Shown here piece by piece: positions 3,102 to 15,812 of a DNA stretch of 17,578 nt. The stretch comes from a virus. A program made the position numbers and the translations under genes. Where the stretch lies: the UHGV virus genome UHGV-0086244; one strand, written 5' to 3'. The notes under the pieces are model-generated. The model did no database searches, was not told the origin of the DNA, and saw nothing but the letters and a program-made list of their open reading frames with translations. The number at the start of each line of letters is the position of its first letter. Positions within the stretch are counted from its first letter, which is position 1.

Positions 3102-3710
3102 TTACTGCAACCTTTCCTGACGGAAATATGGTAACACTCGACTCCACTTATCATCCTGCCAAGGCTGGAATTTTACATGTGCCGTTTCTCTGGCGAGGAT
3201 TGCTCGCGCTCTGTTGAGTATCTGGGGATATTCTTGCTCGATAGAAGTAAAGCGACCGGCTTCGCGGTGCTCCGCGACCTGAAGAAGTGGAGTAACGTTC
3301 TGGCAGGCAGTTAACATCACATCACTTGCTCGCCATAACCAAGCAAGTGTGCAAAGTTCGTTATCAGTGAATTGTTTTGTGATTGGGAATTGTTGAATTT
3401 CTCGATCGAGAAGATCCAGCACCCAGCGGCGGAATTCTTTGGCCACAGGAGTACGAGCAAACATGGCGATCAAATGGGCTCCGCGAAGGCTAAATACTCG
3501 AGACTCCTGCATTCCACGAGGGGTGGTCACTTTGACCACCCTTGTCATCAGATCTGTGAATTCATCTGAGTGCCGAGAGTAAATGCGCTGAACTGCTTTA
3601 TCGTCCGCATATTCCAGTGCTAAACCAACTTCAGTGGCAGTAAGCCAAATTCTGTTATTGTGGCAAATCGGGGTAAACGTCGTTTTGTGGAATGCTAATT
3701 GAGTAGTCAT
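3102..3710 (-). CDS. Bro-N / KilA-N-like DNA-binding protein (202 aa), putative antirepressor
   Basis: N-terminal pattern FTPICHNNRIWLTATEVGLALEY...RGAHLIAMFARTPVAKEFRRWV resembles the Bro-N domain consensus (I-R-x-x-x-G-x-x-W-F-x-A-x-D-V-A-x-x-L); GAGGTGA RBS upstream of the ATG at 3710. Confidence 0.55.
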   Translation of the reverse strand: MTTQLAFHKTTFTPICHNNRIWLTATEVGLALEYADDKAVQRIYSRHSDEFTDLMTRVVKVTTPRGMQESRVFSLRGAHLIAMFARTPVAKEFRRWVLDLLDREIQQFPITKQFTDNELCTLAWLWRASDVMLTACQNVTPLLQVAEHREAGRFTSIEQEYPQILNRARAILARETAHVKFQPWQDDKWSRVLPYFRQERLQ

Positions 3711-3734: not shown

Positions 3735-3767
3735 TCACCACCAACGACGCCAATCGACTGGTGGTGA
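3735..3767. promoter_or_regulatory. Inverted repeat (caccacca-N15-tggtggtg) just upstream of the Bro-N gene RBS; possible operator or 5'-UTR structure
   Basis: Read directly from the sequence: tcaccaccaacgacgccaatcgactggtggtga. Confidence 0.3.
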
Positions 3768-3865
3768 ACTGTGTAAGGTTGGCGTAACCGGCTACTCAAA
3801 CCCGGCGCTTCCGAAGAAGCCCTCACACAGCCCACCATAATTTGGGCATAGCCGTGCTTAGCGCA

Positions 3866-3888
3866 CAAAAAAACCGCTTAACGCGGTA
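3866..3888 (-). terminator. Candidate intrinsic terminator on the minus strand (5-bp GC-rich stem ACCGC/GCGGU, loop GUUAA, then U7)
   Basis: Minus-strand RNA would read accgcguuaagcgguuuuuuug; lies about 85 nt downstream of the small hydrophobic ORF 3974..4063. Confidence 0.4.
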
Positions 3889-3973
3889 TGCGTTGAGTAG
3901 TATCCCGGGACGCCAATCCCGTGTGCCGATTTTGCGGCAACGCACAGAATATAGCGCCGGATAAATCATGTCG

Positions 3974-4063
3974 TCAACCCCAGTAAATGGACACCATGAT
4001 GATCACAGCCATAGTTGCTACAACAGTTACAACTACCTCAGGCCAAAACATAACGATTTCCAT
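3974..4063 (-). CDS. Small hydrophobic peptide (29 aa, MEIVMFWPEVVVTVVATMAVIIMVSIYWG); candidate membrane peptide
   Basis: ATG preceded by AAGGTGA 4-5 nt upstream; single predicted transmembrane stretch; followed by the candidate terminator; lies immediately downstream of repeat copy 2. Confidence 0.4.
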   Translation of the reverse strand: MEIVMFWPEVVVTVVATMAVIIMVSIYWG

Positions 4064-4125
4064 ATCACCTTTAGCCGCCAGACGAATAGAGACTCCCAAT
4101 TCTGGCTGTCGAAGTAAAACACCGA

Positions 4126-4256
4126 ATGTAAAAAATCGTAGGTGCATTTCTGCATCTGTGAATGGAGATGAGAGTTTGGATTGTGTGTGCGCATAAACGT
4201 CCCCGTTTAGCGCAGAAGTCACCGGAGTTTTTTAGGCTCCGATGACAATATTATGG
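4126..4256. repeat. Copy 2 of the ~130-bp imperfect direct repeat (partner at 1953..2084)
   Basis: atgtaaaaaatcgtaggtgcatttctgcatctgtgaatggag...cgtccccgtttagcgcagaagtcaccggag aligns with copy 1; the stem-loop is retained with one arm substitution (gtcaccggag / ctccgatgac). Confidence 0.75.
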
Positions 4257-4341
4257 CTTTTTTATTTCTAAATTCAAAACTTGAAAATATTAAGATTCGC
4301 TTTTAAATCAACCCTAAACAACTGAAGATAACATCTGATAG

Positions 4342-5301
4342 TCAGCTAATTGCAAAGATATTAAAAATAACTTTAGGGAGTGCGAAAGATGAAATAAAAA
4401 GCACAACCATAAAAATGGCATGCTTAATAAATGATGAGCTTGTAAAAAAAGCTCCTCCCTTGCTAATCCCTGCCATAAAAACAAAGATAAAGCTAATTAA
4501 GCACGACCATATCACTAACAAAACTGAGATTGACATGCTTAAAGACATATCGCGAGAAAATACGTTTACTGAAATAGAAATGAAAGTAAAGAAAGAAGCA
4601 AATAAAGCAATGACACCCAGCATTGAGTTCCTTGCTGTAATTACTTCCGATTCAAAGCTTTTAACTTTCTCATGTATATCTTTTTCAGCATTTGATAATG
4701 TTGCATCAAATTGCTCAATCTTTGCAGTTTGCTGAGATAATGAAGACATTACCTTACCTATTTTTCTTTTAGTATCATTAATATTCTTTTTGCTCTTATT
4801 CAACTCTTGCGAAAAATTGGTTAGTTGATCATTGATATTTTTCCAGAGGATGTTATCAATATCACTTTTTGTATATTTTTTTACATTCTCTTTATTAAAA
4901 GAAATTGTAGATTCAGAATTATTATTAACAAAGTAATTAGATAAAATGGCATTAGAGACAGTATTATCCATCACCGGCACAGTTGCTTTTGAACTGTATT
5001 TTATAGCTTCATGCAACATTTCTTTTTCATTAACAAAAAGAGAGGTTTTTATTAAGTTTTGTGGTGCCGCGTCTTTGATAGATATACTTTCCCGCTCTTT
5101 ATTTGAAGCTGTTGCAGTTTTATTATCTATCTGCAAATTACTAATTTTTTGTACCCCTCCTGTATACGTAGATGTACTATTCGATACTTGTGAATTAGAA
5201 TAAAGTGAATGATGCGCAGTTCTTTTTGCCATGTCATCGTTGACTATAGCATTATTATTTGCAATTCTTTTTATATCCTTTTTATTATCATCCTTATTCA
5301 T
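4342..5301 (-). CDS. Hypothetical membrane-anchored protein (319 aa): polar Asn/Ser/Lys-rich N-terminal region with probable coiled coil, and about three C-terminal transmembrane helices
   Basis: Long ORF in a strongly AT-rich cassette; GAGGTGG RBS 5 nt upstream; C-terminal hydrophobic segments MLGVIALFASFFTFISISVNVF, ISVLLVIWSCLISFIFVFMAGI and AIFMVVLFISSFALPKVIF. Confidence 0.65.
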   Translation of the reverse strand: MNKDDNKKDIKRIANNNAIVNDDMAKRTAHHSLYSNSQVSNSTSTYTGGVQKISNLQIDNKTATASNKERESISIKDAAPQNLIKTSLFVNEKEMLHEAIKYSSKATVPVMDNTVSNAILSNYFVNNNSESTISFNKENVKKYTKSDIDNILWKNINDQLTNFSQELNKSKKNINDTKRKIGKVMSSLSQQTAKIEQFDATLSNAEKDIHEKVKSFESEVITARNSMLGVIALFASFFTFISISVNVFSRDMSLSMSISVLLVIWSCLISFIFVFMAGISKGGAFFTSSSFIKHAIFMVVLFISSFALPKVIFNIFAIS

Positions 5302-5315
5302 TCAGCCACCTCACA

Positions 5316-5981
5316 TTACTGAATTTCATTCACTTTACTTAAAAAGGCTTTTTTTGTTTTTTCTGCGGTATATTTATCTTTAAATATAAAACTCTCGATT
5401 GTATTCACATCGATCTGTTTCACTAGCATTGGTTGTTCTCTGACAAGATCATATCCTGACATAATCGACAAATGACAATTAAATATGGACTGCTCAAACT
5501 CGAATTTTTTATTATACATTAAATTAATATCTTCAATTATTTCGCTATCATTCTGCATGTTGTTACTAAGATAGTTTTTAACAATCTCTTTGTTTGGGTT
5601 GTTGTTTAATTCCGCCTTAACGGCCACCAAGCCTATTCTGATAATATCCTTATTGAGTTCTTTATGGATATCAACCACACTATCGAAAACTTCTTGAAAC
5701 AAATGTAAGTCTACCTCTTGCTCAGAATCCATACGTTCAAAAAACAAATCACATCTCTGCAGTGAGCATTGAACTCTAAATTTATTATCTATAGAAAACA
5801 ATTGGAGACGAGGAATCTCTGGTGGGGTATCCATAGGTAAAACGCCCAACATCATATTGTTTGTTAATTCAATACCTGCCTTCTTTTTAAAAGTTTGCCT
5901 AATAAAATACGACATTCCATCGAAATCGACAGTCGTTGATGAATCGTAAAAAAATACCATTTGTAACTGTATGATTTTCAT
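5316..5981 (-). CDS. Hypothetical soluble protein (221 aa), first gene of an AT-rich two-gene cassette; start codon uncertain
   Basis: Long ORF 14 nt upstream of the 319-aa gene on the same strand; no recognisable motif; AT-rich codon usage unlike the flanking lambda genes. Confidence 0.55.
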   Translation of the reverse strand: MKIIQLQMVFFYDSSTTVDFDGMSYFIRQTFKKKAGIELTNNMMLGVLPMDTPPEIPRLQLFSIDNKFRVQCSLQRCDLFFERMDSEQEVDLHLFQEVFDSVVDIHKELNKDIIRIGLVAVKAELNNNPNKEIVKNYLSNNMQNDSEIIEDINLMYNKKFEFEQSIFNCHLSIMSGYDLVREQPMLVKQIDVNTIESFIFKDKYTAEKTKKAFLSKVNEIQ

Positions 5982-6133
5982 CCTATATTCCAGGTTTCAG
6001 CAATGTAAATTTGGCGCATTATTCTAGCTTACAACAGCAACATTTTTGAAGGGCTTTGCTAAAACTTTTATTCCCAGTGGCATTAATTTCAACCAATAGA
6101 ACCTGAACAGAAAAAAACATAAAAATCAATGCA

Positions 6134-6856
6134 TTATTTCGAAATCTTTTTATATAATGCTTTTCCCCCTTTCAGCCCAAACTTAGCTTTGATTTCTGCG
6201 ATCTTCGCCAGAGCCTGTGCACGATTTAGAGGTCTACCGCCCATGACAGGAAGTTGTTTTACTGGTTCAGGTATAGCCTCACCACGGTTAATTCGTGCGG
6301 TCATACAGGACAGTTCATCGGCAGCCTTGCGCCGTAATTCCGCGTCAGTCAACGCATTGGCCCGCATGTTCTGATACAGGTTGGTAACCAGCCAGTAGTG
6401 CGCGTTTGATTTCCACGGATAAGACTCTGCATCCGGATACAGCCCACGCTTCCGGCAATACTCGTAAACCATATCAACCAGCTCGCTGGCGTTTGGCAGC
6501 CCGGCGGTAACGGATGCTTCTTCCCGGCACCAGGCAACAAACTGCCCGGGTGATGGCAGGAATGGTCGATTCTGCCGACGGGCTACGCGCATTCCTGCGT
6601 TAACCTGTTCCATTGTGGTGATCCCGTTTTCCCGGAAAGCCAGAACCCACTGGCGGCGGATTTCGTTCAGTTCATTCTGGTCACGGTTAGCCAGGCTCGC
6701 CGGGAAAGTTGCCAGTAACTGCCTGAACACACCGTTGATGATCTGCGCTACCTGCTGTACCTGTGGCTTTTCGTCGTACTGTTCCGGCATGTTGTTGGCG
6801 ATCCGGCGCATCTGCTCACAGTCAAAGTTAACCATTTGTGCGGCGATGTTTTTCAT
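6134..6856 (-). CDS. P: Replication protein P (DnaB helicase loader), lambda-type with a divergent C-terminal tail
   Basis: Protein MKNIAAQMVNFDCEQMRRIANNMPEQYDEKPQVQQVAQIINGVF... matches lambda P from memory until about the last 10 residues; start overlaps the O stop (ATGA). Confidence 0.95.
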   Translation of the reverse strand: MKNIAAQMVNFDCEQMRRIANNMPEQYDEKPQVQQVAQIINGVFRQLLATFPASLANRDQNELNEIRRQWVLAFRENGITTMEQVNAGMRVARRQNRPFLPSPGQFVAWCREEASVTAGLPNASELVDMVYEYCRKRGLYPDAESYPWKSNAHYWLVTNLYQNMRANALTDAELRRKAADELSCMTARINRGEAIPEPVKQLPVMGGRPLNRAQALAKIAEIKAKFGLKGGKALYKKISK

Positions 6857-8697: not shown

Positions 8698-8726
8698 ATA
8701 ATAGCAATGCGTATTAACCATGGCAA
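8698..8726 (-). promoter_or_regulatory. pR-like sigma70 promoter for the cro-like gene (-35 TTGCCA, 17-bp spacer, -10 TATTAT on the minus strand)
   Basis: Hexamers read from the reverse complement; both overlap the two operator-like 16-bp sites. Confidence 0.5.
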
Positions 8727-8740
8727 TAGCAAAACGTGTT
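8700..8740. promoter_or_regulatory. OR-like operator pair: two 16-bp sites AATAGCAATGCGTATT (8700..8715) and AATAGCAAAACGTGTT (8725..8740), 25 bp centre to centre
   Basis: Same AATAGCAA-N4-T(A/G)TT motif recurs twice at the pL-like region with identical spacing. Confidence 0.55.
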
Positions 8741-8767
8741 TTGACCATCAATACGCAAGCGTATAAA
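8741..8767 (+). promoter_or_regulatory. Candidate pRM-like promoter for the repressor (-35 TTGACC, 15-bp spacer, -10 TATAAA), overlapping the 14-bp palindrome ATACGCAAGCGTAT
   Basis: Hexamers seen in sequence; the short spacer is suboptimal; would give a near-leaderless cI mRNA starting close to the ATG at 8777. Confidence 0.3.
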
Positions 8768-8776
8768 TTAAAACTT

Positions 8777-9469
8777 ATGAAAAAAGAAACTCTTGCTGAT
8801 CGCTTAAACCTAGCGATGGAACAATCTGGGATGTCTCAAGGCGCTCTTGCAAAGGCGTCTGGCGTAGCTCAACCCACAATCTGGAGACTGACAAGCGGCA
8901 ACGCGCGCGGCTCAACAAAAATTGTTGAAATAGCTAATGCATTGGGTGTTCGAACAGAGTGGCTCTCATCAGGCATAGGCCCGATGAGAAATGACGGTCA
9001 ACAATCAGGGAAGCCTACTGTCAACCATTCCAAATACTTCAAGATTGACGTTCTTGATATAGAAGTGAGTGCCGGGCCGGGAGTCATCAACCGTGAGTTT
9101 GTAGAAGTCCTACGCTCGGTTGAGTACTCGTTTGACGATGCTCGTCACATGTTCGATGGCAGGAAGGCGGAAAATATCCGCATCATTAACGTACGTGGTG
9201 ACAGCATGTCAGGAACAATCGAACCAGGTGATCTGCTGTTCGTTGATATCACGGTTAAATCTTTCGACGGTGATGGCATCTATGCGTTTCTGTACGACGA
9301 CACAGCCCATGTAAAGCGCCTGCAAATGATGAAGGATAAGCTGTTGGTTATCTCTGATAACAAGAGCTACTCACCGTGGGACCCGATCGAGAAAGACGAG
9401 ATGAACCGGGTGTTCATTTTTGGGAAAGTCATCGGGAGCATGCCGCAGACCTACAGGAAGCATGGGTAG
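8777..9469 (+). CDS. cI: CI-type prophage repressor: N-terminal XRE-family HTH and C-terminal S24 (LexA-like) autopeptidase domain; not lambda cI
   Basis: HTH segment LADRLNLAMEQSGMSQGALAKASGVAQPTIWRL; C-terminal VRGDSMSGTIEPGDLLFVD ... K motif typical of S24 peptidases; the longest ORF starts at 8720 but would overlap the pR-like promoter, so the ATG at 8777 is preferred. Confidence 0.85.
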   Translation: MKKETLADRLNLAMEQSGMSQGALAKASGVAQPTIWRLTSGNARGSTKIVEIANALGVRTEWLSSGIGPMRNDGQQSGKPTVNHSKYFKIDVLDIEVSAGPGVINREFVEVLRSVEYSFDDARHMFDGRKAENIRIINVRGDSMSGTIEPGDLLFVDITVKSFDGDGIYAFLYDDTAHVKRLQMMKDKLLVISDNKSYSPWDPIEKDEMNRVFIFGKVIGSMPQTYRKHG

Positions 9470-9592: not shown

Positions 9593-10615
9593 ATGAAAGA
9601 TAACAGACAAAAAGTCGTTCATTATAAAAAAGCAGTAATCCCACACAGCAAATCATCATTACAAAACATACTACTTAGTATTATAGGTGAGGGCGGCGTT
9701 GCAGAAAAAGTACTTAGTAGACAAGAAAAAATAACACCTTCAGATGAAAATTCGGGGTATCGTTTCTTAAATAAAAGCGACACATACAAAACTATACTTT
9801 TTGGGCAACTGGTTTTATTTGAAAAAGACAAAAGCCAGTCTCTATTAGAGCTTAGTGATAATGTTAAATTTTATGACATTAACTCCATCACGTCTAATGA
9901 TATAATTATTGATGGAGATAAACGTAGTGACAAAAAAAGAGAGTTTGTAGATTCAATTTTATATTTTGGTGTACTAAACAACCATGTCATGATCGTTCAA
10001 TCCACATCGCTTCGAGCAAGGGAGCTTGAGGCGCATTTGAATTGGCTAATTAATACATTCACAGATGAAAAAGAATCTGTGTTAATGCTTCAAGATAAGC
10101 CATCCGAAGAAACGATGAAAAAAATGGAGAAAGCACCAGCCAAGAGCATAAAAATTGGTGGATTACCCATTACTTCAGAAGTTAAAAATTCAGAGAACCA
10201 AACACCCTCCTTTTCAAATGGTTCGGTGAAGACAATAAAATACCGCCCAATAGGGAAAGGAGGTGCGCTACTAAAAGCATTTTTTGGCGATAACTGGGCA
10301 AATGATATAAACATTAAAGATTCATTAGATGAGGCCAATTTACAAGTAAGCCTCGAGATTACATACTTCAGAAAAACAAATGATAGCGGTCAAGCTGTTA
10401 TAGACAGTATTGCTACCTCACTACGACATCTAGATGAGGATGATATTAGCATCAAACTTCAAGGCGGTGGGGAAATAACGGGAAAAGAGATAAAATTATC
10501 CGGAAAAATTAGCGTTGAACATAACAATGGCATTATTGATGAAAATGATTTATTCTTAAAAATGCATAAGTGGCTGTTCTCAAAACTTGATGCCGGAGAA
10601 TTGGTTGCAAAATAA
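9593..10615 (+). CDS. Hypothetical soluble protein (340 aa) occupying the rexA position; candidate sensor of a RexAB-like exclusion module
   Basis: Long ORF immediately downstream of cI on the same strand, in an AT-rich block; no recognisable similarity to lambda RexA from memory. Confidence 0.6.
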   Translation: MKDNRQKVVHYKKAVIPHSKSSLQNILLSIIGEGGVAEKVLSRQEKITPSDENSGYRFLNKSDTYKTILFGQLVLFEKDKSQSLLELSDNVKFYDINSITSNDIIIDGDKRSDKKREFVDSILYFGVLNNHVMIVQSTSLRARELEAHLNWLINTFTDEKESVLMLQDKPSEETMKKMEKAPAKSIKIGGLPITSEVKNSENQTPSFSNGSVKTIKYRPIGKGGALLKAFFGDNWANDINIKDSLDEANLQVSLEITYFRKTNDSGQAVIDSIATSLRHLDEDDISIKLQGGGEITGKEIKLSGKISVEHNNGIIDENDLFLKMHKWLFSKLDAGELVAK

Positions 10616-10636
10616 CCTACCAAAAGGAGGGCGATA

Positions 10637-11143
10637 ATGAAATCGAACATCATCCACCTTATTGGTATGTTGGTCTTCTATTTTGCTGGTTACTTTTTGT
10701 TCAAGTCAGCATTGGGCTATATTACACCGGGTGTTGTCCTAACAGCTCCGTGGGCTGTGGTTGGACTCATGCAATTGCCATTATCATATTGTATACAAGC
10801 CATTTTTAAGGCAAATGAGGCCAATGACCACTCGTCTTTAACCCCTAGTGAGGTTAGGCGATTAGTGCCAATAGTCAAATCCAAGAGACTGAAATTGGTT
10901 TTATTATTAGCTTTCTATGTATTTTCAACTTTGTTTGTAATCTTGGGGTTAATAGCAAGCACAAATGATCAAGCCCTACTCTTCAGGGTCTTAAAAATTT
11001 CAGGTGGATTACTCTTTATTTCTCTCTATACCAGTGTATTCGTTCATAAAATAATGGTTGAGCTTCAAGAGTTTAAAGCGTTATTAAACCGAAGAGAATC
11101 AGAGAAGAAGGAAAGAGAGTCACTCCTTGATAGATTAAAATGA
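10637..11143 (+). CDS. Hypothetical 4-TM membrane protein (168 aa) occupying the rexB position; candidate membrane effector
   Basis: AGGAGG RBS 7 nt upstream; four hydrophobic segments (IIHLIGMLVFYFAGYFLF, VVLTAPWAVVGLMQLPL, LVLLLAFYVFSTLFVILGLIA, LLFISLYTSVFV); charged C-terminal tail; followed by a strong terminator. Confidence 0.65.
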   Translation: MKSNIIHLIGMLVFYFAGYFLFKSALGYITPGVVLTAPWAVVGLMQLPLSYCIQAIFKANEANDHSSLTPSEVRRLVPIVKSKRLKLVLLLAFYVFSTLFVILGLIASTNDQALLFRVLKISGGLLFISLYTSVFVHKIMVELQEFKALLNRRESEKKERESLLDRLK

Positions 11144-15209: not shown

Positions 15210-15812
15210 TCATTCAGTATCATCACGCGCGGTCTGTGCATATGTCACTACCGCACCTAATATATTAATTTTCTTTTCAACATAGATAATATTATCGTAC
15301 TCATAATTGCCATACGGATAGCAAATGCGAATATTCTCATGTAGATCGGGGTCATCCACCTCAGCTCCAGAACAACTTTTTGAACTACCGGAAGTATACC
15401 GATACGGTGCAACATAAGACGATGTCTCTCCAGGCAAAAAATAAGTTAGTGTCGTAAGGGGTATAATCAGAAAAAATCCAGCAAATATGCACATCCCTGC
15501 ATAAACCTTAAGGTATGCTGACAGACTCTTCCAGCCTCTTTGTTTTACTATCCCCTTCTTAACCCAAAACAGAGATAACAGAAAAGCTATTCCCATGCTA
15601 AACAGAATGTAATAGTGGGATATACTCTGATTAAGAAACGTGACCCTGTAGATATCTGCCCGCCACCAGAAGAAAAGGAAAATAAAGATCAGCCCTGAAA
15701 CTGTCATGCAAATCAAATAAGGATACGAATCTTTTTTCATGTTTAGCGCCCATAAAATTTTTCCTGACCCGGACAAATTTACCATCCATTTTTTGCGCAG
15801 AAAATAGCTCAT
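15210..15812 (-). CDS. Hypothetical inner-membrane protein (200 aa, about three TM helices plus a roughly 75-aa soluble C-terminal domain); moron in the ea22/ea8.5 position
   Basis: AT-rich ORF antisense to the pL operon; hydrophobic segments YLICMTVSGLIFIFLFFWW, YYILFSMGIAFLLSLFWV and VYAGMCIFAGFFLIIPLTTLTYFL; start codon uncertain. Confidence 0.6.
   Translation of the reverse strand: MSYFLRKKWMVNLSGSGKILWALNMKKDSYPYLICMTVSGLIFIFLFFWWRADIYRVTFLNQSISHYYILFSMGIAFLLSLFWVKKGIVKQRGWKSLSAYLKVYAGMCIFAGFFLIIPLTTLTYFLPGETSSYVAPYRYTSGSSKSCSGAEVDDPDLHENIRICYPYGNYEYDNIIYVEKKINILGAVVTYAQTARDDTE

Follow-up and report, generated by a model that had tools for sequence, protein, structure and literature searches.

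UHGV virus genome UHGV-0086244, a stretch of 17,578 nucleotides that we call the window throughout, carries next to its lambda-like P gene an AT-rich cassette of two genes, here named A and B, which encode a soluble protein and a protein with a predicted C-terminal membrane anchor. Three described systems come closest to it. Alike in layout is RexAB of phage lambda, likewise an AT-rich accessory pair of a prophage that joins a soluble cytosolic protein to a small polytopic inner-membrane protein (in our case, as predicted). Once activated, RexB probably depolarises the membrane. A similar order, a cytoplasmic and then a membrane protein, is found in the prophage pair gp30 and gp31 of mycobacteriophage Butters (PMC7542560), whose genes overlap. 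Alike in location is PD-lambda-1, a DUF4041 system that has been experimentally validated as a defence system (Vassallo et al. 2022, PMC9519451) and that occupies the same slot, between P and the antirepressor gene Ant, in a sister prophage.

The cassette nevertheless differs from all three. In hhalign comparisons, the A family scored a probability of 0.1% with RexA and the B family one of 0.3% with RexB, and BLASTP of A and B against RexA and RexB returned nothing significant (for A versus RexA, E of at least 5.8). RexB has four transmembrane (TM) helices and no coiled coil, whereas B combines a long disordered region, a coiled coil, and three TM helices. Moreover, RexAB lies beside cI, whereas the cassette follows P, and the repressor-adjacent slot of the window (9593-11143) holds another pair. 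For Butters, hhalign gave 0.3% for the A family versus gp30, and neither A nor B had a BLASTP match to gp31; gp30 is 403 residues long versus 221 for A, and the host phylum differs. PD-lambda-1 shows similarity to neither A nor B, lies on the opposite strand in the sister prophage, and coexists there with ren, the gene that the cassette replaces in the window. The 96-residue lambda Ren itself gave no BLASTP alignment with A or B at E ≤ 10. Homology to RexA, RexB, gp30, gp31, Ren, and PD-lambda-1 was rejected, as every test for it failed; because of these failures and of the location away from the repressor gene, we file the pair under no named family. By analogy, we rate it as a putative sensor plus membrane-effector defence system built from unrelated, unnamed protein families.

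Our preferred reading, to which we give slightly better than an even chance, is that the insert holding the two genes is a self-contained, mobile anti-phage module that consists of a sensor and a membrane effector and acts through abortive infection or exclusion. We read it in this way because the pairing is strict, because the pair is found on several types of mobile element, because restriction-modification genes are among its neighbors, and because a sister prophage carries PD-lambda-1 in the corresponding slot. The family shows the association with mobile elements, defence hotspots, and defence genes by which anti-phage systems are generically recognised, and it is from this genomic context, that is, through guilt by association, that we infer the defence function.

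Results

Gene A (5981..5316, minus strand) is an open reading frame (ORF) of 221 codons for a cytosolic globular protein, the putative sensor or regulator. Gene B (5301..4342, minus strand) encodes a 319-residue, C-terminally membrane-anchored coiled-coil protein, the putative effector. As the original prediction had read from the sequence, the two are co-oriented and stand 14 nucleotides apart, their strand being the minus one, which the prediction had left unstated; the spacer (5315..5302, minus strand) contains a GAGGTGG ribosome-binding site for B at 5312..5306. The genes are tightly linked and probably co-translated. Because A and B have full-length homologues and keep their synteny across numerous genomes, they are, as judged by sequence comparison, real genes and not chance ORFs.

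At all Enterobacterales loci with sufficient flanking sequence on the contig, A and B stand side by side. These loci comprise lambdoid prophages in which the pair follows P (GCA_030133845.1, locus L003 in our numbering, and one in Kosakonia), an Erwinia prophage in which it lies near Dam and integrase genes, a prophage remnant in Citrobacter, an island beside icd in Scandinavium, and 13 IMG/VR contigs. The arrangement extends to more distant relatives. At 10 of 10 metagenomic or viral loci that encode A relatives of ~20-30% identity, the next gene overlaps the A-like gene or lies at most 15 nucleotides away, and its product has 109-225 residues, C-terminal TM helices, and a Ser/Thr/Asn-rich N terminus. 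The order of A followed by a membrane partner, again with genes that overlap or are separated by less than 15 nucleotides, also recurs at L049-L054 and on the small plasmids that we examined. Two scans of genome contigs yielded no confirmed relative. Co-occurrence of the two genes elsewhere had been proposed as a check on the original prediction, and the pair proves to be conserved across prophages, integrative elements, and small plasmids.

The membrane partners of A-type proteins fall into at least three classes. The first consists of true B homologues with the TM1 motif ALFxxFTFISxNxxIFS, found at L033 (hhalign probability 94%, E = 1.2e-7) and L036 (76%). The second consists of proteins with two TM helices and the motifs AQIRAxGDV and GEK, and the third of proteins with a single hydrophobic segment by hydropathy. 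Neither of the latter two resembles B by eye, and hhalign, which was run on the two-TM class only, gave no match between that class and the B profile. Three distant membrane partners had no match in Pfam, NCBIfam, or PADLOC. By analogy with other systems, a constant soluble A joined to an exchanged membrane partner is what one would expect of a sensor or regulator with swappable effectors.

The settings of the module bring it close to known defence genes. At L049-52, on an integrative mobilisable element, the pair lies directly downstream of genes for a Type II methylase and an Eco47II-type endonuclease. At L053, a small integrative element, it lies beside DUF5677 and SocA_Panacea genes, and at L036 it is flanked by genes for an SDH-type ClpP-like serine protease and for a Type I methyltransferase (PADLOC, 4e-195). 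Within this last locus (L036:1345-3586), the protease gene and the beginning of the A-like gene overlap, and the module may here take a three-gene form. Some loci of the family lie in low-GC, probably Gram-positive contexts with cohesin-type neighbors. Searches of 50,697 cultured phage genomes by megablast and tblastn found no relative of the pair.

A further setting is provided by plasmids. The pair is found on 26 small ColE1/ColRNAI plasmids (2.6-30.7 kb, mostly ~3 kb) of E. coli, Salmonella, and Klebsiella, and in the two plasmids of 3.0-3.1 kb that we examined, the A-like gene and an overlapping two-TM partner are the sole cargo. The plasmid A-like protein was not reached by tblastn of the window's A against plasmids, which gave no match; hhalign against the window's A family gave a probability of 98.8% (E = 1.4e-16), which makes the homology firm. 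One strain, ECCTRSRTH03, has both forms: a chromosomal cassette 100% identical to that of the window and a 3-kb mobilisable plasmid of the ColE1 type (L055; NZ_CP041118.1, 3005 bp) whose sole cargo is a distant A-like gene and an unannotated 127-residue two-TM partner that spans the start of the record.

The pair could also be a toxin-antitoxin or addiction module, in which B would be a membrane-damaging toxin and A its antitoxin or chaperone, and which would stabilise the prophage, island, or plasmid that carries it instead of guarding against phage. The tightly coupled operon with the soluble gene first, the presence of the pair as the only cargo of 3-kb ColE1 plasmids, the SocA_Panacea antitoxin-domain gene that adjoins one relative, and the extreme conservation of the membrane domain of B (see below) all speak for such a role. 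Yet addiction modules are seldom needed by high-copy ColE1 plasmids. Moreover, at 221 residues and with a big conserved fold, A is large for an antitoxin, and it matches no DNA-binding domain; no toxin or antitoxin family in Pfam or NCBIfam was matched; and the exchange of partners around a constant A is more typical of sensor-effector immune modules. We consider a toxin-antitoxin role unlikely, although it may overlap with defence, as it does in many abortive-infection toxin-antitoxin systems.

Small plasmids also carry colicins and microcins, and by that parallel A would be a bacteriocin-like toxin and B its membrane immunity protein. However, A lacks a signal peptide, receptor-binding and translocation domains, and any match to a colicin or microcin family; on the plasmids examined, the pair is joined by no gene for lysis or export; and the putative toxin gene comes first in a co-oriented pair that overlaps. 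We give this reading almost no weight.

The site of the cassette within the prophage is informative as well. Sister prophages that share the backbone of the window have ren at this position, as had been proposed from the sequence. In one of them, SCU-482, the slot between P and Ant holds ren together with a gene for a DUF4041 protein that PADLOC matches to PD-Lambda-1 at 7.8e-190, and in further sister prophages the slot holds ren, emrE, and a recombinase gene. The PD-Lambda-1 match and the varied cargo of the sisters together indicate that the slot is a variable cargo site able to hold defence genes. In another sister prophage (L048:7915-9483), a gene of the SIR2 family adjoins the repressor gene, that is, lies in the rex slot, from which it appears that both accessory slots of this backbone exchange defence-type cargo.

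Within the window, the insert (4280..6167, minus strand; ~1.9 kb, 31% GC) stands between P and the isrK/C4/Ant module, with ren replaced. Its GC content is 0.312 (gene A, 0.318; gene B, 0.305), while the rest of the window is at 0.46 and the 2-kb flanks are at 0.45-0.50, and no other 1.9-kb stretch of the window is as low. When 5,426 complete E. coli genomes were searched by megablast, homology to other prophages broke off at ~6168 towards P and at ~4215-4280 towards Ant. The full insert was found in 21 of these genomes, always on the chromosome, at 99.6% identity or more, and annotated as two hypothetical proteins. One further genome has a copy truncated by IS1 (L002, NZ_OZ546938.1, 5288-6244), in which the element has cut gene A after codon 81 and the remainder of the cassette has been lost. 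The flanking P and Ant genes, unlike the insert (21-22 of 5,426), are common among E. coli genomes. The sharp drop in GC, the defined breakpoints, and the rarity of the insert between common flanks support horizontal acquisition, so that the AT-richness and foreign origin noted in the original prediction are borne out.

Over residues 1-231, the product of the P gene (6856..6134, minus strand; Pfam, 5.9e-62) shares 97% identity with lambda P, from which it departs in the last ~9 codons only; the two genes of the cassette lie beyond this point, as had been observed. A search around the insert for transposon-like flanking direct or inverted repeats gave chance AT-rich matches only. An Rfam scan placed no element within the cassette, with C4 and isrK just outside it, and no convincing intrinsic terminator was found past gene B. 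The AT-rich region between P and A (5982..6133, minus strand) contains two sigma-70-like promoter matches on the minus strand, TTCAAA-18-TAGAAT at 6050..6021 and TTTACA-18-TAGGAT at 6009..5980, each with 9 of 12 positions of the consensus; as the region has 17 such sites versus 9.8 +/- 3.3 expected by chance, they are weak evidence for a promoter.

This position raises the possibility that the cassette serves the phage life cycle or counter-defence in place of ren, acting in lytic growth, when expressed from pR, as an anti-exclusion function or as an accessory in lysis or its timing. The cassette does stand where ren would be and reads in the direction of the O-P operon, and B, with its small TM helices and charged cytoplasmic region, is holin-like. 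Against this, relatives are found on ColE1 plasmids, on integrative mobilisable elements, and in islands beside restriction-modification genes, whereas none was detected in the cultured phage genomes at the DNA or protein level. Neither protein resembles Ren, and the prophage relatives of the window retain a normal holin/endolysin cassette elsewhere. We regard a life-cycle role as highly improbable. The original prediction had left open whether the slot served defence or counter-defence, and had drawn on the anti-exclusion role of ren itself. Genomic context favors the first of these; relatives on non-phage elements and beside restriction-modification genes would suit protection of the host or its element better than a phage anti-exclusion function, and the argument from ren is not supported, given the lack of resemblance and the spread of relatives to plasmids and integrative mobilisable elements.

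Protein A has no TM segment. Its AlphaFold2 model, built on an alignment of 13 sequences, has a predicted local distance difference test score (pLDDT) of 90 and a predicted template modelling score of 0.87, and folds as an alpha/beta sandwich of two beta-alpha-beta(2-3)-alpha halves. The nearest structure is the T. brucei prozyme of S-adenosylmethionine decarboxylase (AdoMetDC; Foldseek E = 1.6e-5, TM-score 0.41), and nothing named among the viral structure models searched resembles it. The likeness to AdoMetDC covers ~100-130 of the 221 residues at a TM-score of ~0.4 and an identity of 6-10%. Neither Pfam, NCBIfam, nor a search of the Protein Data Bank (PDB) with A profiles gave a sequence match, and nothing suggests a pyruvoyl-processing site. 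Membership of A in the AdoMetDC family was rejected, the resemblance being one of fold class only. For the pair as a whole, the remote-homology and structure searches called for in the original prediction returned no characterised structural or metabolic homologue, apart from this loose AdoMetDC-like fold of A.

A word-indexed search with A returned four clusters and a profile search 13, those of the word-indexed search all from Enterobacterales; identities to Enterobacterales homologues are 33-64%, and that to the distant relative P0039 is 25%. A hidden Markov model search of 1.84 billion representatives extended the family to 927 proteins at E ≤ 1e-3 (281 at E ≤ 1e-10), which stand for representative clusters at 50% identity; nearly all have 215-240 residues. 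The longer members look like cases of mis-called starts, and fusion of A to other domains was rejected. Across relatives, Phe-11, Arg-76, Asn-168, Asp-191, and Asn-193 are invariant, and Gln-7, Pro-49, Pro-53, Pro-57, Asp-78, Arg-115, and Gly-117 are nearly so. A Pro-rich loop, P-x-D-A-P-x-E-I-P-R-L-Q-L, is conserved, as is a polar cluster on the beta-strands formed by Arg-76, Asp-78, Arg-115, Asn-168, Gln-189, Asp-191, and Asn-193. A matches phrog_24110, of unknown function, and neither A nor 40 of its relatives had a meaningful match in Pfam, NCBIfam, or PADLOC. A is the founder of a large unnamed family; neither this family nor its interchangeable membrane partners had been recognised in the original prediction.

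Protein B is built of three parts, in accord with the anatomy that had been proposed for it. Residues 1-144 (4870..5301, minus strand) form a hypervariable, Asn/Ser/Lys-rich region (Asn 15%, Ser 13%, Lys 10%) that is predicted to be disordered and cytoplasmic, with pLDDT below 50 over residues 1-140. Residues 145-224 (4630..4869, minus strand) form a heptad coiled coil, the periodicity of which was reached by 2 of 5,000 shuffled sequences, and which leads straight into TM1. Residues 225-319 (4345..4629, minus strand) contain three nearly invariant TM helices (~225-251, 254-281, and 289-315), on which hydropathy and AlphaFold2 agree; in the model, a single long helix spans residues 145-251 and is followed by helices 254-281 and 289-315. 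The charge of loop 2 (+2) and the basic N-terminal part fit an N-in topology. The TM motif ARNSxLxVIALFASFFTFISISVNxFS gives invariant columns in our alignment A3, and the mean identity of homologues to the window protein rises along the chain, from 13% (N terminus) through 40% (coiled coil) to 79% (TM domain). This pattern, taken with the identities of A, fits a constrained effector whose cytoplasmic parts evolve faster. A word-indexed search with B returned 26 homologous clusters, all in Enterobacterales. B matches phrog_25335, of unknown function; Pfam and the PDB gave only generic coiled-coil matches from residues 145-224, and NCBIfam and PADLOC gave none.

The features of B bear on superinfection exclusion, in which B would bind a conserved inner-membrane component through which phage DNA enters and so block injection, with A folding, placing, or regulating B, and no cell death would occur. 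P22 SieA, T4 Imm, and HK97 gp15 are exclusion proteins that work as single membrane proteins. B, a predicted inner-membrane protein encoded by a prophage, would suit such a role, and its near-invariant TM helices (79%) would fit the binding of a conserved host membrane protein. Further, PD-lambda-1 is reported (PMC9519451; PMC13190303) to be a coiled-coil protein that is anchored in the membrane and acts while the phage genome is being injected. Yet known excluders are single proteins, whereas here a 221-residue cytosolic partner is always kept while the membrane partner changes class, and, as the family is also found in low-GC, probably Gram-positive contexts, a target shared by all of its members is unlikely. 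Exclusion without cell death seems to us improbable.

Discussion

If the pair is a defence module, as we prefer to think, A would be its constant cytosolic sensing or regulatory subunit, and B would oligomerise through its coiled coil on the cytoplasmic side of the inner membrane. When activated, B would use its three nearly invariant TM helices to breach or otherwise impair the membrane, or else a conserved protein in it, and phage development would come to a halt. We infer membrane permeabilisation as the effect of B; that A would sense and B would kill is drawn from analogy.

Several considerations weigh against this reading. First, the roles of sensor and effector come from that analogy. 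Second, the literature and its supplements, searched also by accession, contained neither the proteins nor a phenotype of any family member, and newer catalogues may hold a prior description. Third, A, B, 40 A relatives, and three partners gave only two matches, both at chance level (E of ~0.007-0.01), in PADLOC-DB 2.0 (2023). Fourth, several distant loci lie in ordinary surroundings, among genes for an MFS transporter, a beta-lactamase, or LemA/M48 proteins. Fifth, the promoter matches are weak and the cassette has the orientation of the pR operon, so that the two genes could be a lytic-phase pair. Finally, small plasmids with no cargo but the pair are compatible with an addiction module as well.

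A wider proposal, which we hold tentatively and at somewhat less than an even chance, is that the A family and its swappable, C-terminally anchored partners make up a widespread, unnamed form of two-component anti-phage immunity, in which an AdoMetDC-like sensor fold gates coiled-coil membrane effectors, in lineages from Enterobacterales to low-GC, probably Gram-positive bacteria, and which would be small enough for a 3-kb plasmid to carry nothing else. Should the pair prove to protect against phage, a broadly distributed immune module would have been missed entirely by Pfam, NCBIfam, and PADLOC 2.0, and a new sensor fold would come to light together with a set of interchangeable membrane effectors of very small size. 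An explanation would also be at hand for the cargo of many 3-kb ColE1 plasmids, regarded as "cryptic", from E. coli, Salmonella, and Klebsiella, and the P-to-nin junction of lambdoid prophages would take its place alongside the rex slot as a defence hotspot. The system is compact (~1.7 kb) and comes from E. coli, which suits it to standard phage panels.

Other features of the window

A second AT-rich pair of a soluble and a membrane protein lies on the plus strand at 9593-11143, directly downstream of a gene for a CI-like S24 repressor (8720-9469), in the position of rexA and rexB. Its proteins have 340 residues (GC 0.35) and 168 residues with three or four TM helices (GC 0.375). They have no match in Pfam or PADLOC and no BLASTP similarity to RexA or RexB, matching in PHROGs only phrog_3482 and phrog_16807, which are families of unknown function. 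This pair may be an analogue of Rex. Two further genes, both on the minus strand, have GC contents in the range of 0.39-0.40: one at 2134-2766 for a soluble protein of 210 residues (phrog_5712), and one at 15210-15812 for a protein of 200 residues with three TM helices, the C-terminal half of which matches phrog_1416. Neither product has a match in Pfam or PADLOC.

On the Ant side of the cassette, the minus strand carries the isrK RNA (3939..3867; Rfam, 58.7 bits) and the C4 antisense RNA (3842..3757; 74.8 bits) immediately upstream of a Bro-N/P22AR antirepressor gene (3710..3102), an antirepressor control module like immI of P1 and P7. Between this module and the cassette lies an ORF of 82 codons with a GTG start (3974-4222, minus strand), which matches phrog_4612 over residues 26-82 only and whose first 35 codons recur ~1.7 kb away in related prophages; the gene at this place is probably shorter than its ORF.

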